The notes beneath the pieces were generated by a model. It saw only the letters and a list, made by a program, of their open reading frames with translations, did not search any database and had not been told where the DNA came from. A stretch of 64,000 bases of DNA, taken from IMG/VR virus record IMGVR_UViG_3300036770_003016. One strand, given 5' to 3'. The position numbers were made by a program, and so were the translations under genes. Below are positions 11,240 to 60,281 of the stretch, piece after piece. This DNA comes from a virus. Numbering within the stretch: position 1 is the stretch's first letter; every line of letters begins with the position of its first letter.

Positions 11240-13033
11240 TTATTGACATGCTAAACATTCATCCCCTTCTGCAATTGCTTTCATATCAATTTCTTCAATT
11301 ACTTTTCTCTCAATCTGTTTTGACACTTTATCTGCCTTTGCCAATTTCTCTGAACGGCAGTAGTACAATGTCTTGAGGCCTTTCTTCCATGCTAGAAAGT
11401 GTGCAGCATGTAGATACTGGACATTTACATCTGGCCGAAAAAAGAGGTTAACGGATTGCGCTTGGTCAATGTAACTCTGTCTGTCAGCTGCGTGCTCCAC
11501 GATCCATCGTTGGTCAATCTCCATGCTCGTTTTAAATACATCCTTGGTCCACTCGTCAAGGAACTCAAGGTGTTGAACGGATCCATCGTTCGCAATGATA
11601 CTTGACCAAATGTCTGAGTAATCGAGGGTTGTGTCAGCATTACATTTCTCCTGAATTATTTTGTCGAGGTATTTGTTTTTGTTAAGGAAAGCTCCCGATA
11701 GTGTGTCTTGCCTATAAGCATTAGCACGATAAGGCTCAATAGAAGGACTTGTGTTACCCATGATGATTGAACTACTAGCATTAGGAGCAATTGCCATAAC
11801 ATGGCTAAAACGCAGGCCAGTACCAACAGCATCGGGAGCTTCACCTCTTTCTGCACCAAGTTCTTTATTTGCAACATTTAATTTCTCTCTTATGTTCTTA
11901 AAGATTTGTAGATTTCTAGACTTTGCTAGTGCTGACTCAAATGCAACATTATTTTTCTGCAAATAAGCATGGAAACCAAGAGCACCAATACCAATAGAAC
12001 GCTCACGGGTAGCAGAATACTTTGCACGATACACAGAATTAGGTGCTTTATCAATAAAATACTGTAGAACATTATCGAGCATCTCTGCAACATCTTTGAG
12101 GAATAAATTATCATTTTTCCATTCATCATAGTATTCTAAATTGACAGAAGACAAGCAACAAACAGCTGTTCGTTCTTTATCTGTTGGTAGAATAATCTCA
12201 GAGCACAGATTTGATTGTTTGATACTTAGACCAAGTTTCTTTTGAAACTCAGGCATTTCACGATTACTGGTATCAATGAAGTGTAGATAAGGTTCACCAG
12301 TCTGCATACGAATCTCTAGAATTCTCTGCCATAGTTCTTTTGCAGGTACAGAATCACGAACACTACCATCGTGTGGGTCTTTTAGATACCATGTATCATC
12401 TGCATGTGGGTCTTTCATACACTTTTCAATTAACTGCATGAAGTCATCTGTAATGTTGATGCCATGGTGTAGATTCAAGCAACGCATATTCTGGTCGCCT
12501 GTTGGTTTTCTCATTTCTAAAAAGATAAGAATATCGGGATGAGATATATCAAGGTAAGCAGCATAGCTACCACGCCTGGTCCTACCTTGTCTATACGCAA
12601 GACTAGACGCATCATATGTGCGAAGATGAGGCATAACACCAACAGACTTATCATCAGCGGATCTGATACCAATTCCAATTCCAACACCTCCTCCTAACAT
12701 TGACAACCAATTTACTTCTGAAAGGGTGTCAACAAGGCCCTCAGCAGAGTCGTCCAAATATGGCAAAAAGCAAGATATAGGAAGCCCACGCTTACTCCTA
12801 CCATAAGATAGAATAGGAGTGGAATAGCTGAGCCAATGTCTACTACTATATTCATAAAGTCTCTGAGCATGTCCAGGATTTGATCCAAAAGCCTTTGAAA
12901 CATATGCGAACCTTTCTTGTGGAGAGTTTTCATCTTCTCTCATGTAACTTTCTCTTAATCTTTTTTTACCTAGTTCATCAAATAACGAATCTCTAGTGAA
13001 ATCAACGGTAATGCCGTGAACTATGTCAGCCAT
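11240..13033 (-). CDS. nrdA: Ribonucleotide reductase class Ia alpha subunit
   Basis: PISCF, GGGVG, QSNLCSEI, APNASSS, TLYY, C-terminal CLAC. Confidence 0.95.
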   Translation of the reverse strand: MADIVHGITVDFTRDSLFDELGKKRLRESYMREDENSPQERFAYVSKAFGSNPGHAQRLYEYSSRHWLSYSTPILSYGRSKRGLPISCFLPYLDDSAEGLVDTLSEVNWLSMLGGGVGIGIGIRSADDKSVGVMPHLRTYDASSLAYRQGRTRRGSYAAYLDISHPDILIFLEMRKPTGDQNMRCLNLHHGINITDDFMQLIEKCMKDPHADDTWYLKDPHDGSVRDSVPAKELWQRILEIRMQTGEPYLHFIDTSNREMPEFQKKLGLSIKQSNLCSEIILPTDKERTAVCCLSSVNLEYYDEWKNDNLFLKDVAEMLDNVLQYFIDKAPNSVYRAKYSATRERSIGIGALGFHAYLQKNNVAFESALAKSRNLQIFKNIREKLNVANKELGAERGEAPDAVGTGLRFSHVMAIAPNASSSIIMGNTSPSIEPYRANAYRQDTLSGAFLNKNKYLDKIIQEKCNADTTLDYSDIWSSIIANDGSVQHLEFLDEWTKDVFKTSMEIDQRWIVEHAADRQSYIDQAQSVNLFFRPDVNVQYLHAAHFLAWKKGLKTLYYCRSEKLAKADKVSKQIERKVIEEIDMKAIAEGDECLACQ

Positions 13034-13048
13034 AAAATACTCCAGTTA

Positions 13049-13705
13049 TTATTGTTCTACGAATTCTTTTGCCATGGGAAATACCTTGGCAATTACTTCA
13101 GCGCAGGCCTTTGCGACCTCTATGTGTTCTTTCTGTGTTCCGTTGCCAGAACGCAATTGTATGTAGTGGATCCATGATCTAAGTGTGCCATTCATGTATA
13201 ATCTTGATACTGTTAATCCTTCAGGTAATACTGCACGAGCTTGTTCTTTTGCAATTCCGTTTTTGATTGCCCAATCATATTCTCTTTTTGCGGCAAATAA
13301 AACTCTTTTCTGAGCTCTTTCCCATTCAATCTGTAACATATTGTCATCAGTTTCAATACTATTTTGACGATTCTTCTCGTCTTGTAATCTTGCCTCACGA
13401 ATTACAAAATCCAAGTCTTTTGTTGGGTCTGCGTATCGTTGACTAAACTCTTGAAACGAAAATGAACGATGCCTTAACATTTGTCTTGCAATATCTCTTG
13501 TTGTAGTAATTTCCAAACACATATTTACCATTTCTAATGGTGAAAAATGGCAATTTTTAATCAAATAACGAACCAATTTTTCACTCGTTTCTCTATTATT
13601 TTGATTACTTGGATTTGAAACTCTTGCACAAAACGCAACCAATTCTGTCATATTTTCTGCAAAATATTCTGACGGTTGACTATAACTAATCAATTCTACT
13701 TTCAT
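13049..13705 (-). CDS. thyX: Flavin-dependent thymidylate synthase
   Basis: RHRSFSFQEFSQRY ThyX motif. Confidence 0.95.
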   Translation of the reverse strand: MKVELISYSQPSEYFAENMTELVAFCARVSNPSNQNNRETSEKLVRYLIKNCHFSPLEMVNMCLEITTTRDIARQMLRHRSFSFQEFSQRYADPTKDLDFVIREARLQDEKNRQNSIETDDNMLQIEWERAQKRVLFAAKREYDWAIKNGIAKEQARAVLPEGLTVSRLYMNGTLRSWIHYIQLRSGNGTQKEHIEVAKACAEVIAKVFPMAKEFVEQ

Positions 13706-13706
13706 T

Positions 13707-14738
13707 CTATACCTTTTTCCAAAATGTAAATCTTGTTTGCGCTTCTAGACCTCTAAATGTGTTACTACTTATAATACTTTCTATTTCATCAGGTGATAAA
13801 CCATTCATTACCATCTCATTTATATCTTTTCCTTGCATGTGATTAGGCCATATTACAACAAAATGATCGGATCGTATTGCATCCTGCATCATCTTCACGA
13901 TTTCTTTATTCCTGGGTTCATTGTCAAAGATCAAAATCTTTTCATTTGCATTAACCATTTTTGCCGTTAATGAAAGATTGGCATCACCACTTGCAAGACA
14001 ATTATTTAGAAAAAGAGAATCTAGAGGGCCTTCTACTATCTTTACAGGTTTCATTAGATCAACTCTATCCATACCATATATCAGTTTATCTTCTGCATCA
14101 TTTGTGCGAAGAGTGACATATCGCAAAGTCTTATCACTAGTTTCCAATGCACGACCAGACACAGCAATCAATTCATTATACTCGTTATAGAATGGAATTA
14201 CAAGCCTTGCATCATCATATAATTGTTTACCATGATCAGGTACAAGTGTCGTAACGAACTGATTATAATGCTGTGTAAAGAGTAGTTTGTCGTAAAATTT
14301 TAGTGGAATCTGCCTTTTTGTCGCATATTCTAGGCAAAAATGTCCACTCGGTAGTTTACTAAGCCACTCTGCGTGTTCGAAGTATGATTTCTTTTTGAGT
14401 TTGTCAAATCTTGTTGGTGTGACTTGTAGTATCTTGGAAACTGTGTTGGAGTTATTGGTTTCACCAGATTTGAATCTGTCGAGTACATACTCTTTATATA
14501 GAGATGGGTCGACATGTTTGACAAGGTTACCCACATTTGTTCCTACTCCACAATTATGGCATTTATAGAACAAATCATTAATTTTTTGGTAAACATAACC
14601 ACGAGCCTTTGTTAAGTTCTTTTTCGAATCACCACAAATAGGGCAACTAAATTGGTAAGTATTTTCCTTCTTCTGCTTGAAATTACGCAGCCGAGAGGAA
14701 ACTAAGCGGATGTATTTATTATCAATGTGTAGAGACAT
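13707..14738 (-). CDS. 61: DNA primase (T4 gp61-like)
   Basis: CPICGDS..KARG, CHNC, VEGPLDSLF, DNEPRN, KDINEM. Confidence 0.95.
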   Translation of the reverse strand: MSLHIDNKYIRLVSSRLRNFKQKKENTYQFSCPICGDSKKNLTKARGYVYQKINDLFYKCHNCGVGTNVGNLVKHVDPSLYKEYVLDRFKSGETNNSNTVSKILQVTPTRFDKLKKKSYFEHAEWLSKLPSGHFCLEYATKRQIPLKFYDKLLFTQHYNQFVTTLVPDHGKQLYDDARLVIPFYNEYNELIAVSGRALETSDKTLRYVTLRTNDAEDKLIYGMDRVDLMKPVKIVEGPLDSLFLNNCLASGDANLSLTAKMVNANEKILIFDNEPRNKEIVKMMQDAIRSDHFVVIWPNHMQGKDINEMVMNGLSPDEIESIISSNTFRGLEAQTRFTFWKKV

Positions 14739-14746
14739 AGTACCAT

Positions 14747-14775
14747 AATATAACAGAAAATCAAGTTGAAGTCAA
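14747..14775 (-). promoter_or_regulatory. Sigma70-type promoter for primase
   Basis: TTGACT-17 nt-TATATT with TG extension. Confidence 0.6.
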
Positions 14776-14776
14776 G

Positions 14777-15259: not shown

Positions 15260-15261
15260 TT

Positions 15262-15651
15262 CTATTTACCTTTTTCTGATGACTTTGGGGGCTCATAGTA
15301 ATTTTTATATTGTAATATAATTGTTCTCTGTTGTGCAATAAAATTACGCAATTCTGCCATTGTTATTGCCAACGATTCGTACCCGTCATCAGTCAAGGCA
15401 AACAAAACTAAATCTGTGTTTTCTTGGGTTAATTTTTGCCAAACTTGTTCGGCATTTTGTGGTGTTATTACTACCCATTTAATTTCCCTACCCTTTAATG
15501 GAGTAGGATCTGCTATATTTAAAGGTGTCCTTTCTACTTGTTTTGTTTGTATCTCTATTGGTTTAACTTCATCTCTTTTAAACCATGATAAAGCAGAGCA
15601 ACCACTAATTAGGGGAACTATAAGCAGGATTAATAAGTGATGGACATTCAC
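15262..15651 (-). CDS. Outer-membrane spanin lipoprotein (o-spanin)
   Basis: GTG start after GAGG; LLILLIVPLISG-C lipobox; overlaps the i-spanin 3' end. Confidence 0.75.
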   Translation of the reverse strand: MNVHHLLILLIVPLISGCSALSWFKRDEVKPIEIQTKQVERTPLNIADPTPLKGREIKWVVITPQNAEQVWQKLTQENTDLVLFALTDDGYESLAITMAELRNFIAQQRTIILQYKNYYEPPKSSEKGK

Positions 15652-16078
15652 GATTGGCCTCTGTTGGTGTTTTAGCGTTTTTTTCTTGTTCATTGAGTGG
15701 GGCACCTGACGCCAATTCCATACACCTAATTGCATTTTGGGTTCCACGATTCACAAGTCTCTCTACTACATTTGGTTTCTCTGATGCCAGAGCACCAAAA
15801 TCTCTTTTACTAAATTTTGTTGTAAGTGCTTCTTTATCTTTACTTAATTGTTCTTTTTGTTGATTTAATTCATCATTTATTTTTTTGATGGCTTCAATGT
15901 CAACTCTCATTTTTTCCATCAGTTCATGCTGATCTTTTATTCCTTGCTCAAGTTTAGCATTATTTGCCTGTGATACAGCAAGATCAGCTTTTAAATTTGT
16001 TACATGAAAAAACCCACCAGCTAATATTAGTATGATGATGAGGTATATAATTGGTTTTACAAATGCAAGTGGGTTCAT
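15605..16078 (-). CDS. Inner-membrane spanin (i-spanin)
   Basis: N-terminal TM helix, long coiled coil, C-terminal cysteines. Confidence 0.75.
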   Translation of the reverse strand: MNPLAFVKPIIYLIIILILAGGFFHVTNLKADLAVSQANNAKLEQGIKDQHELMEKMRVDIEAIKKINDELNQQKEQLSKDKEALTTKFSKRDFGALASEKPNVVERLVNRGTQNAIRCMELASGAPLNEQEKNAKTPTEANRECPSLINPAYSSPN

Positions 16079-22600: not shown

Positions 22601-23518
22601 TTAGCAATTCCACTTTCTTAATGCTTTGTTAATACGAGAATCTGGATCATTTGCTGTCTTAGCAGATGTCAATCGTTTTTTCATGCCACCCATTCTGGCA
22701 CAAAATGATTTGCGTCTCTTTGCAGACTTAGAATCTGGGTCTAGTTTAGATGGTTTTGTAGTCACAGCAGTCTGTAACTTTGAACCTGGATTCTCACGGC
22801 GATATGATTCAACACCTTTTTGATTCAGACCACCTTCAGGATTTTTACCTTCTTTTCTCTGCCATGCTGCAACCTCATCAAGTTCAACTTCTTCTTTTAC
22901 TTTTTTATATTGTTTCTGCAATACTTTTAATGCATCTTTTGTTACTTTATCAGTTTTTTCTGGTTTTGCTTTTTTACCTACTGGCAATCCTTCTGCACCA
23001 CGACTGGAAGATGGTTGAGATTTATCCATTTCATCAAGTTCAACTTCTTCACTATATGAACGATTACTTTTTGGATCATAACCACCTAAAGGATATGCTG
23101 AAGGTGATGGGGGACGAGGAGCAATTGGTTTCTTTGCAGCTGCTTCATGTCTCTTTTTTACTTCTTCTGCATCTTTTGCTCTTGACTCTGGTGTTGAAAC
23201 TTTTGCATTAGGAAATCTCTCTTTTGCAAATTTAGCAACATAAGAATCTTCTTCTTTGATATGGCCATATTTTTTCTTATACCAATTAGGCATACCATTT
23301 TTTTGTCTGAAATATCTAACTGTTGCAGAATCATTTGCTTGATCACGATACTTGTTTTCTGCTTGAGTATTGTGTCCTTTCATTGCTTCTGCTGCTTTAT
23401 GAGCATCTTTAGCAATATAAACAAGTTCTGCATCTGTTTTGCGATGGTATTCGTGTCCTTCAAGTGGGTGTCTTTGAGAAGGGCGACCTTCTGTTATGTA
23501 AGATTTAAATGACTTCAT
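22601..23518 (-). CDS. Probable head-internal modular protein with conserved C-terminal basic domain (DUF6321-like)
   Basis: MKSFKSYITE; two EEVELDE; WQRKEGKNPEGGLN...RRKSFCARM..DSRINKALRKWNC. Confidence 0.7.
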   Translation of the reverse strand: MKSFKSYITEGRPSQRHPLEGHEYHRKTDAELVYIAKDAHKAAEAMKGHNTQAENKYRDQANDSATVRYFRQKNGMPNWYKKKYGHIKEEDSYVAKFAKERFPNAKVSTPESRAKDAEEVKKRHEAAAKKPIAPRPPSPSAYPLGGYDPKSNRSYSEEVELDEMDKSQPSSSRGAEGLPVGKKAKPEKTDKVTKDALKVLQKQYKKVKEEVELDEVAAWQRKEGKNPEGGLNQKGVESYRRENPGSKLQTAVTTKPSKLDPDSKSAKRRKSFCARMGGMKKRLTSAKTANDPDSRINKALRKWNC

Positions 23519-25848
23519 CCTATTGGCCTCTTTGATCTAAATGTTTTTAGGTTCATACCTTTTTTCTTTAAACCATCTTCAACTTGTGCAGATATAGATG
23601 CAGTTGTTTCATCACCAGTAAGTTCTTCTAATGGTTTTTTAATTTGTTTTACTTTTAATGTACCACGACTCATGTTCTCACCTGATGCAGCCATTGAAAG
23701 ACCAGGTTCTATCCCCTTGTCGATCTCGCTGAGGGTTTCTTCTTGAAGTTTCTCTTTTTTTGCCCTGATTTCTGCGAGGGTAATTTTTGTGGTTCTGGTT
23801 TCTTGGCTGGTTTCTTTTGTGTTACTGAGTCTGTAATCTGATCGTTCACTGAGGAGGGCAGAGACTTCTTGTTGATCTTTGGTTCTACCCGAATATTCGG
23901 TGGAATCTCTGAGTACTTGTTGACTTTCTCTGTTGCTGCCCTCACTGGACCATCCAATGGATGACTCTGTGGTTTCTCTTCCGTCATTCCAAAAAATTTC
24001 TGTAATAGTTTCATTAACATCGTTATTCTCCTTTAATTGCACGACATAACCGTTTTTGTATCTCAAGACCAATCCATTGTGTGTATGTGCTTCTTTTGCT
24101 GCAGCAGCTCTTAACATAAACACACGAACACGACCAGTCTTATCTTTCATTAACTTAGGTTCTTTTTCTTCACCTATCTTAAAATCATGTTCATCAATTG
24201 CATTACCAAGCAATAATAGATTCAATGCAGATGAGTCTGATAGTTCATATGATTCTTTGAACATCTTATCAAAAGCACTAAGTCTTGGTTTTGATTTTTT
24301 ATTCTCAACCTTTGGTTTAGGTTTAGATTTTGGTGTACCAGATGAACTAGAAATAGGTATCTTTTGTTGTTTTTGTTCTTGTGGTTTTACTTCGACAAGT
24401 TTATCATGTACAGAACGATGTGTCACTCTTCCATTTTTGCCGTATCTACCAAACCCGTAATACTTAAGTCCCAATTCTTTTGCCTGTTCTGCTGCTCTAG
24501 AACCTTCATGTGGAACAATCTCTTTACTTGTGTCTACTTTATATGTGTCTTTTTTATCTAGTTCTGCTGCAACCCATTCTTTTGCAGCTTTATTCTTAGG
24601 TGGTGCCGTAACAAATTTTTGTACAGTTTTAAATAACTCTGTAATTTCTTTTTCTTTTTGTTGCACTACTTCTGGTGGTGCATTTCTTAAATCTTCTGAG
24701 TTATCAAACTCTGTATAGTTTTGTCCAAACAATTTTGCATATTCAGGTCTTGCAGCCTGTACAGCATCCCATTTCTGTTTACGAATGTCTTCTGGTACTG
24801 TGCGACCACCTCTTTGTCCTCTTTCTACATTCCTTGCAGCAGAGACTTCATCATCAGTATTGACCATGATTCCACTTGTTTCATAACCATGTTTCTCAAG
24901 ACTACTTTTAATTCTTTTAATCTTTTCTACATCATCACCTGTACCATTAATAATGAGTCCATTCTTTCCAACAAGTGCCAAGTATTGTTTTAATTCAGTA
25001 ACATTTTTTGCACGACTACGAACAGCATTTCTAACTTCTGTTTCGGATTTAGGCATTGTCTTATCAAGACCTTCTTTGTCCATAAGAAACTCAAATGCTT
25101 TATCAGAATTAATTTCAATCAGACCTTGATTATCGAGTGTTCTAGATAACACATAATCTTTTCCAGAACCTGGGCCACCAAAAAGAAATACTGCTTTGAA
25201 TATAGATTTATCGTGAACACCTTCTACCAAGAATTCTTCAAACTCTTCGTTAATGTCTTCTCTAATCATCATTCCTTTGCGAACATCATTGTACATTGCC
25301 TTGACTGTATCAAGTGGCATCGTAGATGGAGCACCTTTTTTAAATTTTGCAAATTTTCCTTGTGCAGCAAACTCACGCATTTTAGATGCAGAAATACCAG
25401 CAACTCCATCTGCATCAGGGTCTCTTTCTCCAGCAGAATGAACTTCTATCTTTTTGAATTTGAAAAGATCACCATTGTAAGTATTAAGTAATCTTTTGAA
25501 TTCTGGCACACGATCAGAACCACCTACCATGTGTAGATGTGTATAACCTGCCTTATACAGGTCTGCGGCTTGTGATAGGAAATTAGGGGAAGTTGCGTTT
25601 GAAGATTTGAATGTGACGCCAGGAAAAGACATCTTGGCGTATTTGACTTTTTGTGCTGCGGAGAGTGGATTTTTCTTTTTATCTTGTGTGTGGGAAAGAA
25701 TTATGATTGCTTTTCCACCAACTTCTTGTGCTACAGCCTTGACTTTTTTAACCAATTCTTGGTGGCCGTTGGTAATAGGATTCATGCGGCCAAATGCCAT
25801 AACCACATGTTTTTCTTCTTTTTCAGTAAGGTATTCTTTAAATCTCAT
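23515..25848 (-). CDS. Cytidyltransferase-like (HIGH-class) nucleotidyltransferase fused to a P-loop kinase (PNK/zeta-toxin-like)
   Basis: FGRMNPITNGH, GSDR, SASKMR; GGPGSGK, INSD, RNVER..RTVPE; N-terminus MRFKEYLTE. Confidence 0.8.
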   Translation of the reverse strand: MRFKEYLTEKEEKHVVMAFGRMNPITNGHQELVKKVKAVAQEVGGKAIIILSHTQDKKKNPLSAAQKVKYAKMSFPGVTFKSSNATSPNFLSQAADLYKAGYTHLHMVGGSDRVPEFKRLLNTYNGDLFKFKKIEVHSAGERDPDADGVAGISASKMREFAAQGKFAKFKKGAPSTMPLDTVKAMYNDVRKGMMIREDINEEFEEFLVEGVHDKSIFKAVFLFGGPGSGKDYVLSRTLDNQGLIEINSDKAFEFLMDKEGLDKTMPKSETEVRNAVRSRAKNVTELKQYLALVGKNGLIINGTGDDVEKIKRIKSSLEKHGYETSGIMVNTDDEVSAARNVERGQRGGRTVPEDIRKQKWDAVQAARPEYAKLFGQNYTEFDNSEDLRNAPPEVVQQKEKEITELFKTVQKFVTAPPKNKAAKEWVAAELDKKDTYKVDTSKEIVPHEGSRAAEQAKELGLKYYGFGRYGKNGRVTHRSVHDKLVEVKPQEQKQQKIPISSSSGTPKSKPKPKVENKKSKPRLSAFDKMFKESYELSDSSALNLLLLGNAIDEHDFKIGEEKEPKLMKDKTGRVRVFMLRAAAAKEAHTHNGLVLRYKNGYVVQLKENNDVNETITEIFWNDGRETTESSIGWSSEGSNRESQQVLRDSTEYSGRTKDQQEVSALLSERSDYRLSNTKETSQETRTTKITLAEIRAKKEKLQEETLSEIDKGIEPGLSMAASGENMSRGTLKVKQIKKPLEELTGDETTASISAQVEDGLKKKGMNLKTFRSKRPIG
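23709..24020 (-). CDS. Nested +1-frame basic protein inside 23515..25848
   Basis: AAGGAG 7 nt before ATG; natural-looking sequence MLMKLLQKFFG...KKPAKKP. Confidence 0.6.
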   Translation of the reverse strand: MLMKLLQKFFGMTEEKPQSHPLDGPVRAATEKVNKYSEIPPNIRVEPKINKKSLPSSVNDQITDSVTQKKPAKKPEPQKLPSQKSGQKKRNFKKKPSARSTRG

Positions 25849-32722: not shown

Positions 32723-33767
32723 TTTCGGTTTCTGGTTCTTCGACTTGAAGAATACTTCCAAAAGAAATTGAATACCTTTGTTTAATAAATTCTTTAAACT
32801 TTTCACTCTTTAAAATGTCCTTCCAAAACTCTTTTGTGTTTGTATCAGCTTCACGATACTTTTCACTTGCGACTTCGCCAGTGTCTTGATCTACCTTTGC
32901 ATACCAACCAGGAGATGGTTTAGCAACAAACTTTCCTTCCATCGCAATTTCAAGAAGACCAGAATACTTGTTGATACCACCATCAAAAGATACGGTGATA
33001 GGAATCTTAGACTTCTCACGAACATATCTAGACTTCTCAATATTGATGATGAAGTTATAGCCGGATAGTTCTGTTCCAGTTTTTTCTTGTTGGCGACCAA
33101 GAATCCAAATCGTATCAGCAGAATAATAAGAACCTGTACCACCACCAACAATATCTTTTGGAAACATACCAATTTCTTTGTATGTGTGATTGACAACAAC
33201 CATTGGTATATCTTTGATTGTCAAATGTGGTGTAATCATACGAAACAGAGATTTGATTTGTTTAGCACGGGTCATGTCTGCAACTGATTTGCCTTCTAAA
33301 CTATCTTCGACTTCTTTTCGTGATGCAAGATTACCAATTGAATCAAGAATGAGAATAACTTTATCATCTTTGGCAAGGCCTTGCAATTGATTCATCACAT
33401 CGTGTTTCAATTCTTCAACATCAGTAATTGGGGTATGAAGAACACGACCCATATCAATATCAAATGTTTCAAAATATTTTTGTGGTGTTCCAAATTCAGA
33501 ATCATAGAACAACACAACAGCATCTTTATATTTTTTAAGATATGCTGATGCCATCAGAAGTGCAAATGCAGTCTTAAAATGTTTTGATGGACCAGCCAAC
33601 ATTGTAAGACCAGGTGTTAAACCACCTTCAAGATTACCAGAGAGTGCAACATTAATCATTGGCACATCTGTGGGAATCATATCTTTCTCGGTAAAGAATT
33701 TAGATTTATCAAGTATAGAAGAATCTTTGATTGTAGTATTCTTCTTCAATTTATCAAGTAATGACAT
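32715..33767 (-). CDS. uvsX: RecA-like recombinase UvsX
   Basis: GPSKHFKT, YDSEFG, DSIGNLAS, DMTRAK, GGTG. Confidence 0.97.
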   Translation of the reverse strand: MSLLDKLKKNTTIKDSSILDKSKFFTEKDMIPTDVPMINVALSGNLEGGLTPGLTMLAGPSKHFKTAFALLMASAYLKKYKDAVVLFYDSEFGTPQKYFETFDIDMGRVLHTPITDVEELKHDVMNQLQGLAKDDKVILILDSIGNLASRKEVEDSLEGKSVADMTRAKQIKSLFRMITPHLTIKDIPMVVVNHTYKEIGMFPKDIVGGGTGSYYSADTIWILGRQQEKTGTELSGYNFIINIEKSRYVREKSKIPITVSFDGGINKYSGLLEIAMEGKFVAKPSPGWYAKVDQDTGEVASEKYREADTNTKEFWKDILKSEKFKEFIKQRYSISFGSILQVEEPETENA

Positions 33768-34558: not shown

Positions 34559-37089
34559 GAGAAGAAACTATCTAATGTATTTCGTTTCTCTACATCCCAG
34601 CCAATACAATTCAAAATGATCTTGATTGGTTCGATGAAAGATTTCTGAAACTGCATTTCATAATCAACATAAGTTTGCAATTCTAATTCCTTTGGCATCC
34701 TAAGTGGATAAGATATGACATTCTCTTTGACTGGATTAGGAGTCTTGAGATATGTGAATCTCAATTTTTCTCCCTCTTTAATCATAGGATATTTTTTATC
34801 TAGTCCAAACTTTTCTAAGTAGTGATTATATAGAATTGCACCTTTGACATGTATTGGAGTTCCTTTCTTGTACATGGTAACTGAATCTGAATACTCAGAG
34901 ATACCATTTACACTTCTAGGAAAAGAAATCTCTTCTACAGGTAATTTTCTAAACTCTTCGTGGAATTCTTCAATATAATCTTGTACTGTACTTTCATCAG
35001 AATTAATAATCAAGCGAATCACTTCTCGCATCTTCTCTTTCACAGCAGCAGGCGTAGAAGATTTGACAACTTCTAGACCCATGATCTTCATATCTGGTTC
35101 GTTGTACTGTACACCTTCGTTATTGTAAACATTCAACACATATCGTTTCTTGGCAGTCCATATTCCTTTGTCTGCAAGAGCCTCTCGTTTCATTTGCATT
35201 TTTTGTTGAAACGCATTGACATACTCAGCAAGTTCCTCGTAGCTCTTATCAATATACGGTTGAATTTTATCCTCACATACCTTATCCATGAAGGCGATGA
35301 TTTTCTTAGTATCGCTTGTTTCTGTGAACACAGAACCCACCAAAGATGAAAGATTGAGATAGATCGAGTCAGTATCCGATGCAATAACATAATCGTTATC
35401 CGTTTTGAGAATTTTGTTTAGATATTGATTTAGTTTCCCTTCGATCCAACGAATAGACAATTGACCAGCAAGTGTGATCGCAAGAGCCTGTCGCAGATCG
35501 TAGAATCTGAAATATTTAGACCCCATTGCACCATAAGCAGAGTTCAAAGAAACTTTTTTTGCAAGTTGAAGATTATTATATCTTGCAACTAGTTTTTCAA
35601 TTTCAATCTTCTTTTTAGGATCTTTCTCGTTCTCGTAATCTTGTTTTGCCTTCAGCATCAACTTCTTAAACTTCTTACGATCTTCATACATCTCTTCCAT
35701 CATCTTAGGTAAGAAACCTTGAATGTCAGTTCTGAAGAATTGGCCATTTGGTGTTAGACATGCATTTTTTAATCCACACTCTTTGATTCGTACTTCTTTG
35801 TTCAACAGTCTTTCTACACTTACACCTTGACCAAGAATATGCATCATAGGTGGTGTATAATCAGAAGTTTCGATCAAAGTCTCTGGTGAGATATTGTACT
35901 GAATCATCAGGTGAGGATACAGACTGTTCAAGTCAAACGATGCGACCCAGTTGTGTAAACCTACCTGTGGGTCTTTTACATATGCACCTTCATATGCTGC
36001 ATCTTTTTCCTTTCTTTCTTTTGGCGGAATAAGAATATTCTTTTCAAGAAGATAAGAATAGATCAGAGAGTCCCACATTCTTGTCTGAGCAAAAACATCT
36101 TCATAATTTGTTTTTGTATCATAGGCAAGAGTGAGAGCCAACTCAATCAATTTCAGTTTGTCTTCAAGTTCAAAAATAAGTTCAACGTCAACGATATTAT
36201 ACTCAATAAATTTTTGAAAGTTTCTTTTGTAGAGGGTATGCAGATTATCATATTCTGAATAGTCTACTTTCTCTTTGTTGAGTTCTGAATATGCAATGTG
36301 ATTCAGAGTATAGTTTTCTTGTGACTTGCCATTTGGAGCATACCATCTGTAAAGATGAATATAGTCTAATAGAGCAACACCAAGAATACCATAACTCTTT
36401 TTGAGTTTGCCTTTGACCATAACTTCTCTCTCAGAAACATAATTCCAAGGCGAGAGTTTTCTACATTCTTGTTCACCAAGAATACGATTGAAACGATTGA
36501 TGATGTATGGAATATCAAAGAATTCCGTATTCCAGCCAGACAAAACATCTGGGCAATATTCTTGCCACCACATCAGAAACTTTTTACATAGAGTGTATTC
36601 ATCAGGACACTCTACATATTTTTCATTTCCTTTTGTGGTGTATTTGCCACAACCAAAAACAATCGTCTCACCACTTAAGTATTTTAAGCAGATTGAAACG
36701 ATTGGTTCTGTTGCCTTGTATGGGTCAGGAAATCCATTCTCTGATCCAACTTCGATATCGATTACAGCAATAGAGATATTATTAATATCCCATTCGATAG
36801 ATCCTTTGTGATGATCAGCAATAAAAGCATACTCATACCTATCATTGCCATAAATTTTAAAGTTCTCAACTTCTTCATACCTTTTTACAAAATCTTTAGC
36901 CTCACGAATAGTTTCAAACTTTTTAGCCTCTAGTGGCTCATTGAAAAGAGTTTTAAACTCTGTTTGTTTTTTAGTTGGCAAATATAAAACTGGAGAGTAC
37001 TCTATTCTATCTTGAATTCGTTTACCATTTTTTATGCCACGATATAGAACATTGTTACCCTGAACTGCTATATTTGTATAATATTTCAT
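34555..37089 (-). CDS. 43: Family B DNA polymerase (gp43)
   Basis: DIEV exonuclease motif, SFDLNSLYP, KVSLNSAYG, SDTDS, KKRY. Confidence 0.98.
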   Translation of the reverse strand: MKYYTNIAVQGNNVLYRGIKNGKRIQDRIEYSPVLYLPTKKQTEFKTLFNEPLEAKKFETIREAKDFVKRYEEVENFKIYGNDRYEYAFIADHHKGSIEWDINNISIAVIDIEVGSENGFPDPYKATEPIVSICLKYLSGETIVFGCGKYTTKGNEKYVECPDEYTLCKKFLMWWQEYCPDVLSGWNTEFFDIPYIINRFNRILGEQECRKLSPWNYVSEREVMVKGKLKKSYGILGVALLDYIHLYRWYAPNGKSQENYTLNHIAYSELNKEKVDYSEYDNLHTLYKRNFQKFIEYNIVDVELIFELEDKLKLIELALTLAYDTKTNYEDVFAQTRMWDSLIYSYLLEKNILIPPKERKEKDAAYEGAYVKDPQVGLHNWVASFDLNSLYPHLMIQYNISPETLIETSDYTPPMMHILGQGVSVERLLNKEVRIKECGLKNACLTPNGQFFRTDIQGFLPKMMEEMYEDRKKFKKLMLKAKQDYENEKDPKKKIEIEKLVARYNNLQLAKKVSLNSAYGAMGSKYFRFYDLRQALAITLAGQLSIRWIEGKLNQYLNKILKTDNDYVIASDTDSIYLNLSSLVGSVFTETSDTKKIIAFMDKVCEDKIQPYIDKSYEELAEYVNAFQQKMQMKREALADKGIWTAKKRYVLNVYNNEGVQYNEPDMKIMGLEVVKSSTPAAVKEKMREVIRLIINSDESTVQDYIEEFHEEFRKLPVEEISFPRSVNGISEYSDSVTMYKKGTPIHVKGAILYNHYLEKFGLDKKYPMIKEGEKLRFTYLKTPNPVKENVISYPLRMPKELELQTYVDYEMQFQKSFIEPIKIILNCIGWDVEKRNTLDSFFS

Positions 37090-48525: not shown

Positions 48526-48527
48526 CT

Positions 48528-53649: not shown

Positions 53650-54215
53650 TTGCGTCTCTGTGCCCTTTTAATTATCTTGGTTTGTTTCCTACGACCTTGA
53701 GAAAGAGAAACTTTACCTACTTTAGAAGTAAACTTAACACCGTTCATATGATCTAGTTCATGAAGGTAACATCTTGCAGTCAAACCGTCAAGCCATTTCC
53801 TTTGTACTTGTCCTTGTTCATCAATATATTCTGCATGTACAGACACAGGCCTCTCTACTTTCAAAAACAAACCTGGAAAAGAAAGACAACCTTCATTGTC
53901 CTTGGCAACTCCACCAGAAACTTCTAGTACTTTTGGATTGATACACGCCATCTGAAACTGATCTGTACCAATTACAAACACTCTTTCATATACACCACAT
54001 TGATTTGCAGAAAGACCAACACCACCATACAGTTTCATCGTCATCTTCAATCGTGCAATCAATTTATTCATTACAGGATTAGGTAACTGATCTGTATACT
54101 CAGGTATCTCATCATCTAACATTACATAGTTTTCACCATATAAAGGTAATGGTTCTATTGTCTCTTGTTTCTTAACTACTTCTTCAGAAGTATCAATTGT
54201 TAAAATTTCACTCAT
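53646..54215 (-). CDS. def: Peptide deformylase
   Basis: GVGLSANQ, EGCLS, HELDH. Confidence 0.95.
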   Translation of the reverse strand: MSEILTIDTSEEVVKKQETIEPLPLYGENYVMLDDEIPEYTDQLPNPVMNKLIARLKMTMKLYGGVGLSANQCGVYERVFVIGTDQFQMACINPKVLEVSGGVAKDNEGCLSFPGLFLKVERPVSVHAEYIDEQGQVQRKWLDGLTARCYLHELDHMNGVKFTSKVGKVSLSQGRRKQTKIIKRAQRRK

Positions 54216-55924
54216 TTTATTATCTTTGAAAAATTCTTTACCTTCTCAAAACGAATTACATTACTAAACTTATCTTGTAGTATATCACCTTTATGCGATA
54301 TCACAAAGATATTTACACCTTCTAACATATGTAACAACTTCATCAACTCTTCTGTGCCGTTTGCATCAAGTGAAGAATCAAATGTCTCATCTAGTATCAG
54401 TAGATTTGTATTTGCAGAATTCTTCAGTTTAGCTACAGCACGCCAAGTCAACATCAATGCCATATCAATTCTTTGTTTCTCACCCTCAGAAAAGTTATGG
54501 TACGAAAAATCGTCACGATGTCTGGACTTAATTGATTCTTTAAACGATTCATCAAGGTTAAAGTTTACAAAGAAATCTAGTGACGATAAATACTTGTTTA
54601 CTAACTTATTGATTACTGGCAAGTACTGTTTTATGATTTTGGTTTTGATACCAGTATCTTTTAACAAATTAGAGGATACCTCATAATATGTATTTTCTTG
54701 CAATAATTCTTTTAAGTGCGATTGCTGTTTTATCAAACTCTCCCGTAGTTCTTGCAGCAGTTGTTCTTCTTGCGTGGACGATACTGACGTTGCTTTAAGA
54801 TCAGCAATCATTTTTCTCAAACGATCAATCAATTTATTTGTCTCAGTGATTGTTGTATTTGTCTTTGCAATCTCTACTTGTTTCTCAGTTATCTCTTTCT
54901 GAATATCAGCAATCTCGTTTAACTTAGTCTGTTCTTCATTCAGTTTCTTTTCGAGTTCTGAGAGACCATGTTTGCAACTAGTGACTTTAGCGGAGAGATC
55001 ATTAAGTTCTTCCTCTTTAAATTCACTGGCAATGGTTTGCCTACATGTTGGGCAATTATCATGTGTCTGAAAGAAACTGATATCTTTCTGAAATTTGGAT
55101 AAGTTGCTTTCAATCTGCGATTCAAGTTTTGTAATTTTCTTGACTTTAGCCTCTGTGTCAATTTTACTTGCAGTAACCAATTGCAATCCTCTTGTCTGTT
55201 GGGTAAGTGTTGCAACAGTTTCGAGTAAGGAGGATACGGTATTGCTATGACATTCAATCTCACTTTCATATTCTTTCACCTTGTCTTCATTGTTTTGTTT
55301 CAATTGATCTAGATGTTTCTTCTGTAGATCATACTTCTGTTTGTTCAATTCAAGTTCATGCTTTAAATCAACAATCAAAGTTTTATTGGCAGACAGTCTT
55401 TCTTTCACCAAAGAATTCATTGTAGAAAAGATTTGAATGTCTAACAAGTCTTCAATGATTGCACGGCGATCTGATGCAGACAATTGCATGAAAGGTGTGA
55501 ATGAAGCTGAACCAAGAATTACGATCTGTGTAAATGATTTGTAGTTTAGTTTCAGTACAAATCGTTCAAGGTATTCTTGATAGTCTCTAGATGCCGCATC
55601 TTGATTCAGTAGTTCATTGTTGCAGTAGATTTCAAAAACATTTGGTTTAATACCACGAACAATTTTATATGACTTGTTATTGGTATTAAACTCTAACTCT
55701 ACAACACAATCTTTACCATTGATTGAATTAATCAGATTAGGTTTGTTGATATTGCGAAAGGCTTTACCGAACAATGCAAAACACAATGCATCAAGTAAGG
55801 TTGACTTACCTGATCCATTTGAACCCACTATCAATGTATTGGCGTTAGTGTTAAGATTAACTTCTGTAAAGTGATTGCCTGTTGATAGTAAGTTTTTCCA
55901 TTTAATTGTTCGGAATATAATCAT
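54212..55924 (-). CDS. 46: Recombination endonuclease ATPase subunit (gp46, Rad50/SbcC-like)
   Basis: GSNGSGKS, CPTC hook, FSEGE, LDETFD. Confidence 0.97.
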   Translation of the reverse strand: MIIFRTIKWKNLLSTGNHFTEVNLNTNANTLIVGSNGSGKSTLLDALCFALFGKAFRNINKPNLINSINGKDCVVELEFNTNNKSYKIVRGIKPNVFEIYCNNELLNQDAASRDYQEYLERFVLKLNYKSFTQIVILGSASFTPFMQLSASDRRAIIEDLLDIQIFSTMNSLVKERLSANKTLIVDLKHELELNKQKYDLQKKHLDQLKQNNEDKVKEYESEIECHSNTVSSLLETVATLTQQTRGLQLVTASKIDTEAKVKKITKLESQIESNLSKFQKDISFFQTHDNCPTCRQTIASEFKEEELNDLSAKVTSCKHGLSELEKKLNEEQTKLNEIADIQKEITEKQVEIAKTNTTITETNKLIDRLRKMIADLKATSVSSTQEEQLLQELRESLIKQQSHLKELLQENTYYEVSSNLLKDTGIKTKIIKQYLPVINKLVNKYLSSLDFFVNFNLDESFKESIKSRHRDDFSYHNFSEGEKQRIDMALMLTWRAVAKLKNSANTNLLILDETFDSSLDANGTEELMKLLHMLEGVNIFVISHKGDILQDKFSNVIRFEKVKNFSKIIK

Positions 55925-56565
55925 ATTTTATTTTTACAATTATCAAAATGATATCTTTTCATCGAGTTAGAACCACCAGTTTTTTTACAATGTGGACATT
56001 CAATAGTTTCATATTTTAATCCTTTATTATAGGGTATTTGACCTTTGTGGGCATTACTCATATTTGTTCTTGATTTATCAGAATGAATTCGTCCTCTATT
56101 GTATGTGTGTCCTAAATGTGCCAATCTATTTTTTTCTTTAGATTCTTCAGAATGTTTTTTGCCAGCAATCCAAGGTTTTTGACCTTTTTTTCCTTTTGAA
56201 ATATTTTCTTTCCATTCATCAGTAAAATTTCTTTTTTGTCCTATTAATTTATTTCTTCTCTTTTCTATTGTTTCTGGTTTTTGTTTTTTGCCAGTTAGTT
56301 TTTTAACAATTTTTTCTATTGCTTCAGGTTTTTTCTTTTTTCCCAAATGCGTTTTTCTTTGAATTTCTCTGATTATATCTTCTTTTCCTATTCTTCCACT
56401 CAAAGCTTTCCAAGCAATTTCATCTTGCCAACATCCATGATTTTCCCAAAGCAATTTATGTGCTTCAGCGTGTTCTTCTATTGTCAATTCAACAATATTT
56501 GATGGGTCATCGGTTCCACCCATATGTTTAGGTATAATATGATGTTTATGAGTTTTGATCGACAT
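55921..56565 (-). mobile_element. Free-standing HNH homing endonuclease with NUMOD3-like repeats
   Basis: HKHHIIPKHMGG.D...N...LT.EEHAEAH; KKHSEESK repeats; inserted between 47 and 46. Confidence 0.9.
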
Positions 56566-57616
56566 TTAAAGCCTCTAAGTATATTTCTTTTATAATAGAC
56601 TTCATTTTTTTTGGATCAATATCTTCCGTCAAATTGTCTATTACCTTATTTATAATAGTTAGAGTATCTTCTGCCTGATCTATTAGTTCTTGATCGTCTT
56701 CTAGAATCAGATCATTAAAGTCTTCAACAATAGACAAATCAGCCACACCAGTTTTGTAAATCAAATCTACTACATGATCAAAGAGAAATGGGTTTTGTTT
56801 ATTCACTACAACAACTTTCACATAGGTATCTTTGAGTGACGAGAAATCATAATTCTTCCAAGATTCAAAGTCTGTTTTAGTGTCATCATATACTACTTTA
56901 TTAAACATAGTATTAGTATTCTTCACAAACTGCATCTCTCTAGTAGCAGTATCAAATATATGAAACCCTTTTGGATCATTGTGATCTGCCCATGTCATTT
57001 CGTATGGCGTACCAACATAGGTAATATTACCGTCTGTAGATTTGTGATGAAAATGCCCAGACAGAACTATATCATACTTGGAAAGAACCTTTTTGTCAAG
57101 CCCATGATCACAAACATTGCCTTTATCCATTTCAAAGCCTGCAATCTCAAAGTGACCAAAACATATCTCAGACTTTGTTTTTTTCATTTTCTGAAAGATT
57201 TGTTTCTCATTCTCGTCACACATCCAAGGTACGATATCAATCGGCACACCATCAAATTCTACGGTATCAAAAACGTCATAGTATTTGATACACTGGTATT
57301 CATTTAACAATAGACCAGTTGAGTTTACCTCAAGTGTATTTTTAAATGCAACATCGTGATTGCCAAGTAGTGTATGTAGTTTGATGCCAAGATTTTCACA
57401 ACGATCAAAAAAGTATCTACGGCAGAGATGTAGTGTATTGAAGTTGATGAATTTTCTGCGATCAAACAAATCACCCATCTGAAATATAACTTCAATATCA
57501 TTTGCCTTTAGATAAGGAAAGAATATCTCATCATAAAATTTTTTGAAGTAATTGTGAAAGTCTAACGAATCACCTCTAGCCCCAAAGTGTGTGTCACCGA
57601 GTATACAAAGTTTCAT
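56546..57616 (-). CDS. 47: Recombination endonuclease subunit (gp47, Mre11/SbcD-like)
   Basis: GDTHFG, GDLFD, GNHD, SGHFH. Confidence 0.96.
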   Translation of the reverse strand: MKLCILGDTHFGARGDSLDFHNYFKKFYDEIFFPYLKANDIEVIFQMGDLFDRRKFINFNTLHLCRRYFFDRCENLGIKLHTLLGNHDVAFKNTLEVNSTGLLLNEYQCIKYYDVFDTVEFDGVPIDIVPWMCDENEKQIFQKMKKTKSEICFGHFEIAGFEMDKGNVCDHGLDKKVLSKYDIVLSGHFHHKSTDGNITYVGTPYEMTWADHNDPKGFHIFDTATREMQFVKNTNTMFNKVVYDDTKTDFESWKNYDFSSLKDTYVKVVVVNKQNPFLFDHVVDLIYKTGVADLSIVEDFNDLILEDDQELIDQAEDTLTIINKVIDNLTEDIDPKKMKSIIKEIYLEALNVDQNS

Positions 57617-57794
57617 GTTGTAATTGTGTCTTCAAATGTTCAATTTCTGTTTTTAATTGCAACTTCTTTTTCTTCATTGAGGTAACAAGTGCATCATTAC
57701 CATAATGTTTTTCTTCTTTAATTATTTCGGCATCTAGTTCACGATGTACTTTCTCTAAGTGTACCAGATGATGTTCAAGTTTTTCTTTATCCAT
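57594..57794 (-). CDS. DUF465/YdcH-like coiled-coil protein
   Basis: H.ELD.EI, KKKKLQLK.EI. Confidence 0.7.
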   Translation of the reverse strand: MDKEKLEHHLVHLEKVHRELDAEIIKEEKHYGNDALVTSMKKKKLQLKTEIEHLKTQLQHETLYTR

Positions 57795-57807
57795 AATATT
57801 TTCCTAT

Positions 57808-58314: not shown

Positions 58315-58341
58315 GATATAGGCAATCTTGGTTAAATGTTG

Positions 58342-58370
58342 TTGACATGGAGCTTGACAGGTGTTATAGT
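58342..58370 (+). promoter_or_regulatory. Plus-strand (antisense) sigma70-like promoter
   Basis: TTGACA-17 nt-TATAGT with TG extension. Confidence 0.55.
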
Positions 58371-58390
58371 CTGGGTGTCCCGTTTGAAAA

Positions 58391-58822
58391 TTAATGTAGC
58401 TTATTATTCTTTTGCTCTTTCATTATCTCTTGCATCTCTTCTAAAGTTAGTTGTTGTTCTTCCTCATCGTAGTACTCATCTTCATCTTCTTCATCAGACA
58501 TCATTAAAGATTCACCAATCTGTTCATCCCCAAGTAGTTCTTCTGTTTGAAAAGCTGCATTGATATAATAAGAAACAAGTTCATCTCTTGGTTCTACAAT
58601 AGTAAGAATGTCAGATGCATCAATAATTGCTGAATTCTCTTTAATGAGTTCAACAGGTAACCAAGGCATCATCATCATAACAGTTTTACCAGTAGGTAAT
58701 CTTTTAAAGACAACATGCATTGGCTTATCTAGTAGAACCATATCATTATCTTTATCATCAGAATAATTTGCAATGATATCTTCACCAGATTGTAGTCGAA
58801 CTATTTTTATGTTATTTTCCAT
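58391..58822 (-). CDS. Conserved Sm-like T4-type hypothetical protein
   Basis: IVRLQSGEDIIA, MPWLP; acidic tail; between uvsW and 55. Confidence 0.75.
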   Translation of the reverse strand: MENNIKIVRLQSGEDIIANYSDDKDNDMVLLDKPMHVVFKRLPTGKTVMMMMPWLPVELIKENSAIIDASDILTIVEPRDELVSYYINAAFQTEELLGDEQIGESLMMSDEEDEDEYYDEEEQQLTLEEMQEIMKEQKNNKLH

Positions 58823-60281
58823 CTTTTAACTCTATGTTGTAAAATTTATAATTGAACTTCTCTTCATCATAGATTATACACCTAGCAATGAAATGTTTCA
58901 AGGTGTAATTGGCATATTTGCCTATACGAAAATCATCTGTGATATCAAATAAAGTTGCTTCTTCTTTGTTATCACCTTTACGAAGCCCACGACCTATGGA
59001 CTGAAGATTACGGATACGAGACTTGGAAGGAGAAGCAAAAACAATGTTGTGAAGATTACGAATGTTAATACCTGTGCTGAATGTTCCATAAGATGCCACA
59101 ATGATTGCATTGTTTTCTTTTTCTGTGATTTCTCTGACTGATTCTCTGACTTCGACATCTGTGCCTCCAAACACAAAAAATACATGTCTTTTACTTGCGG
59201 CTTCTTTAATCAATGAGTGTAATTGTCTGCCATGTTTATCTACAAGATTAAACAACACAAGTGTATTGCCTTCTAAAGAAAGAGTTAAATTCTTAATGAA
59301 TTCATTTCTTTTAGTGTTACTTACTATGTAGTTAATCTCTGTTTGATAGTCCCATTTCGTTGCTTGTTTGCAAATTTCTTCTGGGTACTTAAGTATTAAA
59401 CACTTGATCTTAAAATCTGCCAAATGTTTTTGTTCAATCAATTCTGAAGTTGTTGTTGATTGATATACAGGCCCAAACAATCCTTCTAGTACGAGTCTAT
59501 GTGTTTGTGTTCCATCAAGTGTACCTGTTGTGCCAATTCTATATTTGGCATTAGTGCAACCTGTTAGAATAGTGGTAAGTGATTTTGCTTTGAACTGGTG
59601 TGCTTCGTCACCAAGAACAAAATCAAACTGTTCAAAATATTCAGGATCATTTTTGTAGATAGATTGCCATGTAGATATAGTAAGAAACTTATCTATCGTG
59701 CGATCTTTACCTGAATACAATCTATGGCAATATTCATCTGAATCAAAACCGTATGATGAAAAATCTTTAAACATCTGTTCAACAAGAGAAGTTGTTGGTA
59801 CAATCAACAGGCCTTTCTTGTAGTCAGCCTCTAATAGGTATCTTACAATTAGATATATGATAAGTGATTTACCTGATGCCGTAGGAGATACGAGCAACAT
59901 TCTTTTGTTTCTTACAGAATGTACAAAAGATTTTAATTGATAGTCACGAACTTCATGTGGTATATTTAATGTATCGATAAATGCTTTTGCTTCAACTAAC
60001 GAATAATTCTCAGTAGTTGACACATCAGAATCTATTTCTAATGTGTATTCTCTTTCTTTACAAAATTTTTCAACATACGGTACTAATCCAAAATACAAAG
60101 TCTGTTCTCGTAATGAAAACAGACGAATGTATCCATCCCACATTTTATTTTTGTATGCAGGTACAAATTGAAATCCTGGTACTCTAAAAGAAAAGTATTG
60201 ATGTAACTCTTGAGCAAAATGTTTCTCACATTCTATGCGTATGTAAGACTCATTTATTTTATGTAGAACTAAATCTGCCAA
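58812..60281 (-). CDS. uvsW: SF2 helicase UvsW
   Basis: SPTASGKS, DEAH, TGT, QSIGRGLR. Confidence 0.96.
   Translation of the reverse strand: MADLVLHKINESYIRIECEKHFAQELHQYFSFRVPGFQFVPAYKNKMWDGYIRLFSLREQTLYFGLVPYVEKFCKEREYTLEIDSDVSTTENYSLVEAKAFIDTLNIPHEVRDYQLKSFVHSVRNKRMLLVSPTASGKSLIIYLIVRYLLEADYKKGLLIVPTTSLVEQMFKDFSSYGFDSDEYCHRLYSGKDRTIDKFLTISTWQSIYKNDPEYFEQFDFVLGDEAHQFKAKSLTTILTGCTNAKYRIGTTGTLDGTQTHRLVLEGLFGPVYQSTTTSELIEQKHLADFKIKCLILKYPEEICKQATKWDYQTEINYIVSNTKRNEFIKNLTLSLEGNTLVLFNLVDKHGRQLHSLIKEAASKRHVFFVFGGTDVEVRESVREITEKENNAIIVASYGTFSTGINIRNLHNIVFASPSKSRIRNLQSIGRGLRKGDNKEEATLFDITDDFRIGKYANYTLKHFIARCIIYDEEKFNYKFYNIELKDGK

Follow-up and report, generated by a model that had tools for sequence, protein, structure and literature searches.

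Two candidate overprinted genes nested in the +1 frame of gp46 and of a nucleotidyltransferase-kinase gene in a T4-like phage

The viral DNA of IMG/VR record IMGVR_UViG_3300036770_003016 was analysed over a stretch of 64,000 nucleotides, hereafter the window, the sizeable genes of which all lie on the minus strand, with a GC content of ~35%. A first-pass annotation of the window listed eight small open reading frames (ORFs) nested in larger genes, each led by its own Shine-Dalgarno (SD) sequence, and read them as systematic overprinting of core genes. Comparison with related phages makes it quite probable that two of them, in gp46 (54940..55269) and in a nucleotidyltransferase-kinase gene (NT; 23709..24020), are real overprinted genes, that stretches in nrdA (three), gp43 and uvsW are possible ones, and that the ORFs in the putative primase, in uvsX and at 11425-11640 of nrdA are by-products. 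Ribosomes would start independently at the internal SD and ATG on the host mRNA and read the +1 frame, and one stretch of DNA would thus yield two proteins.

A strongly supported nested gene in gp46

The host gene gp46 (54212..55924, minus strand, as are all features of the window described here) encodes a Rad50/SbcC-like protein of 570 residues. The nested ORF (54940..55269) overlaps host codons 219-328, which encode the coiled coil and a CPTC zinc hook, and its predicted product has 109 residues and an isoelectric point (pI) of 11.7. The SD sequence AAGGTG (55277..55282) lies 7 nt before the nested ATG, and a +1 stop codon TGA (55276-55278) directly precedes the ORF, two codons before the ATG.

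Relatives of the window phage in IMG/VR number in the hundreds, at 65-88% identity. For comparison, 336 relative loci were gathered in five scans, and 54 window genes were codon-aligned with their orthologs after sequences at least 95% identical had been dropped. The nested ATG is present in 76 of the 77 gp46 orthologs, and AAGGT, retained by way of a Lys codon AAG, in most. The nested frame stays open over at least 102 codons (102-109) in most of these orthologs, with a product of 105 residues in most relatives compared to 109 in the window. A +1 stop at host codon 216, upstream of the nested ATG, is found in nearly all of them. In lineages L058 and L062-064, the ORF is broken and the SD sequence is lost as well (AAAGT).

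Further analysis of codon choice revealed that codon switching in the overlap obeys stop-codon logic exactly. Leu, Ile and Val codons that stand before C or T end in A or G (NTA/NTG) at the same rate inside and outside the overlap (61.5% versus 61.3%), whereas before A or G such codons make up 13% inside compared to 50% outside. Within single columns of the alignment, the codon changes according to the base that follows: ATA, TTA or GTA stands before C/T, and ATT, CTC or GTT before A/G. TTG and GTG followed by G, which read TGG, are tolerated, while TTA followed by G and TTG followed by A are avoided. The earlier remark that C-ending codons are frequent in such stretches holds for gp46, where CTC accounts for 4 of 12 Leu codons and GTC for 2 of 5 Val codons, above their window-wide shares of 7% and 11%.

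Naive comparisons are biased if the regions compared were picked for being open in the window, and several comparative tests were therefore used. A first contrast for gp46 (3.4% versus 44% stop-making codons) was overstated, as the region had been picked from the window and background that is likewise stop-free in the window gives ~21%; since region selection had inflated it, this contrast was replaced by tests conditioned on, or excluding, the window. The sister-pair test counts codon-junction changes between phylogenetically independent sister pairs, with the window excluded. Across 26 such pairs, 29 of 189 changes inside the gp46 overlap involve a stop, compared to 513 of 908 outside; for pairs below 20% divergence, the counts are 1 of 66 inside and 186 of 349 outside. 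A reference-free scan sought runs in which less than 10% of orthologs carry a +1 stop at any junction, and scored them by the stops expected from codon usage. Its sole outlier is the gp46 overlap, a run of 104 codons in which 4.76 stops per sequence are expected; twelve pseudo-stop triplet sets, used as a control, gave no run of comparable density. A link between an intact ORF and the presence of ATG and SD sequence was also considered; it is confounded by phylogeny and was left unused.

The overlap is constrained at synonymous sites as well. Synonymous codon identity is 0.641 in the overlap, compared to 0.553±0.006 in other segments of the gene, and peaks at 0.74-0.76 in host codons 253-305, where the host protein is less conserved than elsewhere. 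Conservation declines with distance from the window phage. Among orthologs with at least 70% gp46 identity to the window, the ORF is open in 70%, the stops observed and expected are 0.70 and 5.14, and the ATG is kept in 98%. At 55-70% identity, the ORF is open in 14%, with 3.43 stops against 5.09 expected and the ATG kept in 71%; below 55%, it is open in 0%, with 7.67 stops against 4.97 expected and the ATG kept in 17%. The annotated records of phiM12, S-IOM18 and Melnitz have no nested coding sequence in gp46, and of their homologous +1 frames only that of Melnitz is partly open, those of phiM12 and S-IOM18 being closed. Literature searches turned up no description of a gene nested in gp46.

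The nested product has a conserved core, LQNLNRKLKATYPNF..ISVSF..M.IVQ.VGKPLPW, and a single Cys that lies outside any lipobox. Its AlphaFold2 model shows a compact β-α-β-β-α-β fold, with a predicted local distance difference test score (pLDDT) of 70.5 and a predicted template modelling score (pTM) of 0.53. Family, fold and protein database searches found no significant sequence or structural relative of this product outside the gp46 position. A protein called on a JGI contig (P0001) was considered as an independent homologue and rejected as an artefact; it begins in the gp46 frame, continues in the +1 frame and occurs on a single contig. Altogether, the comparisons strongly support the gp46-nested ORF as an overprinted protein-coding gene. 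It is most likely restricted to the clade with ~70% gp46 identity or more and most likely arose de novo; its birth would have taken place in a part of the host gene where synonymous and conservative substitutions are tolerated.

A strongly supported nested gene in the nucleotidyltransferase-kinase gene

The NT gene (23515..25848) encodes a protein of 777 residues that consists of a cytidylyltransferase-like domain, a Zeta-toxin/AAA_33 kinase-like domain, a linker and a C-terminal module. Its long C-terminal extension sets it apart from Pelagibacter phage HTVC008M, the annotation of which splits the corresponding region into two genes and lacks the C-terminal part. The nested ORF (23709..24020) would encode a product of 103 residues with a pI of 10.4, rich in Lys, Pro, Gln and Ser and carrying an N-terminal amphipathic helix; an SD sequence AAGGAG (24028..24033) lies 7 nt before its ATG. 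The host frame over the overlap (codons 610-714) is a low-complexity linker, rich in Ser, Thr, Glu and Gly and variable in length, followed by the conserved C-terminal module with the motif KITLxxIR...IDKGI.

Although host identity is only 37-54%, a +1 ORF of 57-90 residues is retained in the orthologs of all 11 lineages compared, and stops ~180-245 nt before the host stop. Summed over the 11 lineages, no +1 stop is observed where 25.5 are expected (Poisson P ~9e-12), and the host frame 0 across the overlap is stop-free in 11/11. An SD sequence, (A/G)AGGAG(A) or AAGGAA/AGAGGA, is located 7-8 nt before the ATG in every one of the 11; in one subgroup, the SD itself is encoded by an upstream ATG-AGG-AGA. 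The nested product shares an N-terminal M[LF]xxL[IL]NLFK helix, the motif SHPLDGxTRVAQE and a basic KSGxxKKK tail, and lacks Cys. AlphaFold2 predicted two short helices followed by disorder. The overlap is strongly diverged and varies in length among these lineages. The retention in these lineages strongly supports the NT-nested ORF, too, as an overprinted protein-coding gene.

A profile of the nested product searched against 1.84 billion proteins matched six called small proteins. One of them, P0006, is a free-standing homologue of 68 residues encoded at 3001-3207 of locus L341, on a 158-kb contig (NCBI GCA_046464045.1). No ORF overlaps it, there is no NT-like gene nearby, and its neighbours, including DUF7207, DUF7201 and Lipase_3, are unrelated. 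Alignment of P0006 with the NT-nested family by hhalign gave 96% probability and an E-value of 1e-9, with the same starting Met. As judged from this homology, P0006 is independent evidence that the +1 frame of the NT gene encodes a real protein family. The free-standing gene suggests that the long NT ORF extended over an older small gene, and growth of the long ORF across it would be the likeliest history.

Another match, P0002, was examined as an independent gene and rejected as an artefact derived from a frameshifted host gene on a single contig. At locus L340 (2380-2435), the NT gene has lost one A from a TACAAAAAC run, and another of the six small proteins was called there only for that reason. 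The frameshifts of L340 and P0001, which gave the only close database matches to the nested ORFs, stem either from errors in sequencing or from genuine inactivating indels.

Single-genome statistics of the +1 frame

The eight listed ORFs were reproduced in full: all lie on the minus strand, internal to their hosts and in the +1 frame, with the start codons, stop codons, SD strings and spacings as listed. The ORFs at 12712-12903 (nrdA) and 58994-59158 (uvsW) are each part of a slightly longer ORF and start at an ATG inside it, as the first ATG in frame is at 12933 and 59185, respectively. Pfam confirmed the proposed host identities of nrdA, gp46 (SMC_N/AAA_23), UvsW, the family-B polymerase (gp43), UvsX and the NT gene (CTP_transf_like plus Zeta_toxin/AAA_33); the putative primase gave zero Pfam matches.

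To build a null, synonymous codons were permuted inside each of 86 genes in 1000 shuffles, with and without the next base preserved. The number and length of +1 ORFs in the window show no excess over it: +1 stop codons number 1340 (1326±16 shuffled), ATG-started +1 ORFs of at least 54 residues number 20 (18±3), and the longest +1 ORF has 109 residues (128±27). The +2 frame of the window genes holds zero ORFs of at least 50 residues, compared to 20-34 in the +1 frame, which bears out the earlier caveat that +1 is intrinsically the more open alternative frame.

The picture differs for ORFs with their own SD. Open +1 stretches with an SD-led ATG and at least 54 downstream codons number 11, compared to 4.5±1.7 in the shuffles (p ~0.002). 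Equal numbers in the shuffled controls had been named in advance as grounds for rejecting overprinting, and the numbers are not equal. At a length of at least 100 residues, there are 2 such stretches against 0.2 shuffled, and the two are exactly the NT-nested and gp46-nested ORFs. The excess is stable across thresholds of 50-60 residues and four SD definitions, and weaker elsewhere. The window has no overall enrichment of SD motifs or of +1 ATGs.

As a separate observation, internal SD-like tetramers in the minus-strand genes number 1140, compared to 1200±17 in synonymous shuffles, which fits mild avoidance.

Stop avoidance in nrdA, gp43 and uvsW

The sister-pair test was extended to the other long +1 stretches with a partner control, in which depletion of stops counts only if the partner set (the same codons with a different next base) is undepleted. 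Where control stretches reach extreme z-scores, their partner sets are depleted as well, which marks these scores as general codon bias. With this control, z of -4.4 or below was reached by 6/26 real stretches compared to 2/371 control stretches, and z of -6.3 or below by 4/26 compared to 0/371. Depletion was taken as stop-specific if a stretch had an own z of at most -4.4 while its partner triplets stayed above -2, and the stretches below, which show it, form a second tier.

Three of the second-tier stretches lie in nrdA. The first (12517..12693, host codons 114-172) has a z of -10.4 with a partner value of -1.6, and its GTG start is kept in only 30% of relatives. The second (12712..12939), which includes the listed ORF 12712-12903, has a z of -7.3 (partner +0.4), its ATG kept in 80% and its frame open in 84%, with 0.28 stops observed against 1.41 expected. 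The third (11926..12135), absent from the first-pass list, shows weaker stop avoidance (z -4.5, partner -1.4). Columns in nrdA show context-dependent codon choice like that of the gp46 overlap. In gp43, the stretch 35190..35417 with the listed ORF 35190-35390 has a z of -6.5 (partner -1.3); its ATG is kept in 93% of relatives and its SD in 15%, and its frame is open in 42-60%. In uvsW, the stretch 58994..59209 with the listed ORF 58994-59158 shows weaker avoidance (z -4.9, partner -0.7), and 65% of the relatives with 70-78% identity have an open frame, compared to 8% of those below 60%.

The expected stops in these second-tier stretches are only 0.8-3 per sequence. The alignments point to stop avoidance beyond matched controls, which may reflect translation. 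As uncertain candidates, guarded from stops in relatives but unconstrained in sequence, these stretches may represent ORFs under weak selection or ORFs that came to be translated recently. The claims for nrdA 12712-12903, gp43 and uvsW are uncertain, with stop-specific avoidance on the one side and frames that lack synonymous constraint and are often broken on the other.

Three further genes (61602-62957, 47256-48440 and 62972-63991) have a strong general codon bias, with pseudo-stop triplets depleted in relatives just as real stops are. Such bias is typical of highly expressed genes, here probably structural ones, and mimics frame conservation if uncontrolled.

ORFs indistinguishable from background

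The ORFs in the putative primase, in uvsX and at 11425..11640 of nrdA, listed as nested genes, are indistinguishable from background in the relatives. The primase ORF (14330..14536) retains its ATG in 24% of relatives and an open frame in 39%, with 2.03 stops observed against 2.80 expected and a median first stop at codon 18. The uvsX ORF (32891..33199), which starts at TTG, has an open frame in 9% of 33 orthologs and a median first stop at codon 16. The nrdA ORF, in the C-terminal half of its host, reaches a z of -3.9, short of the control-calibrated threshold; its ATG is kept in 61%, with 0.96 stops observed against 2.43 expected. Three SD-led ORFs outside the first-pass list (10170-10376, 49886-50233 and 57325-57501) are unconserved, with observed/expected stops of ~1 or more. 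As far as the orthologs indicate, the primase, uvsX and nrdA 11425-11640 ORFs are not supported as genes and appear to be by-products of a naturally open +1 frame.

Across the checks proposed with the first-pass list, the ORFs separate. Start and open frame are retained in orthologs for the NT and gp46 ORFs and mostly lost for primase and uvsX. Depletion of +1 stops was found for NT, gp46, nrdA 12712-12903, gp43 and uvsW, and stayed at background level in primase, uvsX and nrdA 11425-11640. The synonymous-site scan was positive in the gp46 overlap and negative in nrdA, gp43, uvsW and primase.

Weighing the nested genes against other explanations

An internal alternative frame is common to all eight ORFs. 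Retention of that frame is found for NT and gp46, and in the sister-pair test alone for nrdA (three stretches), gp43 and uvsW. A start of its own is evident for NT and gp46, and poor for the nrdA GTG ORF (30%) and the gp43 SD sequence (15%). We favour the reading in which the NT-nested and gp46-nested ORFs are overprinted genes.

A number of observations weigh against this reading or narrow it. In about 17-30% of the close gp46 relatives, the nested ORF is interrupted by a stop and so is dispensable there, and the cultured phages closest by gp46 (S-CREM1, Sinorhizobium phiM/phiN and Melnitz) share only ~48% identity. The NT overlap is poorly conserved in both frames (pairwise identity 0.28 in +1 and 0.25 in frame 0), and the match of P0006 is limited to the N-terminal 29 residues. 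Both nested proteins lack a match among known families and folds: searches of Pfam and PHROGs gave nothing below an E-value of 0.04, Foldseek against the PDB gave E-values of 0.9 or worse, and the best VIA-align Z was 4.9, to common ferredoxin/RRM-like arrangements. Uncorrected sister-pair z-scores are over-dispersed, with pseudo-stop stretches reaching -7.1. As for the second tier, the nrdA, gp43 and uvsW overlaps, like that of primase, have no synonymous constraint relative to the rest of the gene, their frames are broken in 16-58% of relatives, and they sit within the control range of the reference-free scan.

A wider reading extends selection beyond the two genes. It is possible, if doubtful, that this clade of freshwater, T4-like phages keeps at least 6-7 nested +1 frames open by selection, in nrdA, gp43, uvsW, gp46 and the NT-kinase gene. 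These frames would then form, as a similarly tentative suggestion, a partly young "hidden proteome" missed by gene callers, in which some members are proto-genes or peptides constrained only to stay open. The strongest form of the idea, in which all or nearly all of the listed +1 ORFs and similar ones across the core genes are functional, is improbable. SD-led +1 ORFs occur at ~2.4 times the shuffled expectation, stop-specific avoidance is seen in 6 of the 26 testable long +1 stretches (2 of 371 controls), and 6 of the 8 testable SD-led stretches have a z of at most -3.9, all of which it would explain; yet the total of +1 stops and the ORF lengths equal the null, the ORFs in primase and uvsX and at 10170-10376, 57325-57501 and 49886-50233 are unconserved with observed/expected stops near or above 1, synonymous constraint is confined to gp46, and the nrdA GTG start is kept in just 30%. 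The systematic overprinting proposed at first thus narrows to two genes that pass every comparative test run. Overprinting at this set of loci, as far as the comparisons reach, is real, and the systematic reading is supported in part.

Ribosomes might also enter the +1 frames by shifting from the host frame, in which case the products would be gp46 or NT variants that are truncated and end in an alternative C-terminus. Under this model, too, selection would keep the frame open past a segment read in the host frame, and frameshifted copies do occur on metagenome contigs (P0001 and L340). However, these copies have their shift in an A-run or resemble single-contig indels, the conserved +1 stop two codons before the gp46-nested ATG leaves almost no room for a shift site, an ATG with a canonically spaced SD is conserved in both genes, and the NT-nested family has a member that is a gene of its own and starts at the same Met. 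A programmed frameshift would leave the +1 frame open from a shift site, with no start of its own, and the nested genes do not have this arrangement. We regard this route as very improbable.

Least probable of all, and already contradicted for both strong cases, is that every nested ORF, these two included, stems from the stop-poor +1 frame, host composition and shared ancestry: the open +1 frame (20-34 ORFs of at least 50 residues, none in +2), single-genome ORF lengths equal to the null and the inflated first gp46 contrast (3.4% versus 44%, with a fair background of ~21%) all fit it, but sister-pair changes exclude shared ancestry, the pseudo-stop and partner-triplet controls exclude codon bias and region selection, and the NT ORF, which has a free-standing homologue, persists together with its SD and ATG in lineages of only 37-54% host identity.

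As both nested products are very basic, we would guess, with little confidence, that they bind nucleic acid or have an accessory role in DNA metabolism. In the ESM Atlas, the feature score reached 0.77, which is short of recognition. By eye, no late-promoter-like TATAAATA was seen just upstream of either nested start, and a look-up of RNA records over 53600-56600 listed none.

Relation to known overlapping genes

Embedded gene pairs on the same strand in the +1 frame are known from phages, including the spanin genes Rz/Rz1 of lambda and, in phiX174, E within D and B within A. Barrell 1976 is cited in the review PMC8227390. Similar to these, each gene described here is a small same-strand gene wholly inside a larger one, in another frame and with its own SD and ATG. 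The classical pairs are translated from a shared mRNA, and the nested genes of the window would be, too. By contrast, the overprinting here affects genes for a Rad50-like nuclease subunit and for a nucleotidyltransferase-kinase instead of lysis or scaffold genes, and the phage is a large, T4-like double-stranded DNA phage, for which saving space is a weak motive. Compared to Rz/Rz1, the nested products also lack a lipoprotein signal, a lipobox and a membrane anchor, and so do not resemble a spanin pair.

The gp46-nested gene shares the profile of young overprinted genes reviewed by Pavesi 2021 (PMC8227390) for de novo overprinted viral genes: it is an orphan, basic and found in one clade, in a loosely constrained host segment. 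Most documented cases come from small RNA or single-stranded DNA viruses, unlike the T4-like phage studied here. Detection of overlapping genes from a single genome by ORF length (Schlub et al. 2018, PMC6188560) would miss the nested ORFs of the window, as their length equals the null and only the comparative signal reveals them. In Pseudomonas aeruginosa, long overlapping genes under purifying selection have been described with ribosome profiling (Ribo-seq) support (PMC8850804). Conservation of the open frame supports the embedded ORFs in both cases; those of P. aeruginosa are antisense, whereas the ORFs here are sense-strand, in the +1 frame and recognized from the DNA alone.

Annotation pipelines bar long same-strand overlaps, so that these genes are absent from every database. 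In searches of 5.8 billion and 1.8 billion proteins, the hits were limited to calls from frameshifted hosts and to one or two relatives that stand alone. It is unexpected that a conserved protein should be encoded over the coiled coil and zinc hook of a Rad50-like protein, and the gp46 case would provide a testable example of de novo gene birth in a large double-stranded DNA phage. The NT case would represent the reverse route, the expansion of a long ORF across an older small gene. Combined with partner-triplet controls, the sister-pair stop test told real from spurious nested ORFs where single-genome statistics failed, and is scalable.

Frame conservation at gene ends

At two gene ends (15605-15747 and 43310-43531), the +2 frame seems conserved only because a downstream start chosen for the longest ORF (GTG at 15747 and ATG at 43533) overruns the end of the upstream ORF. 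Both are likely to be over-extended starts rather than dual coding.

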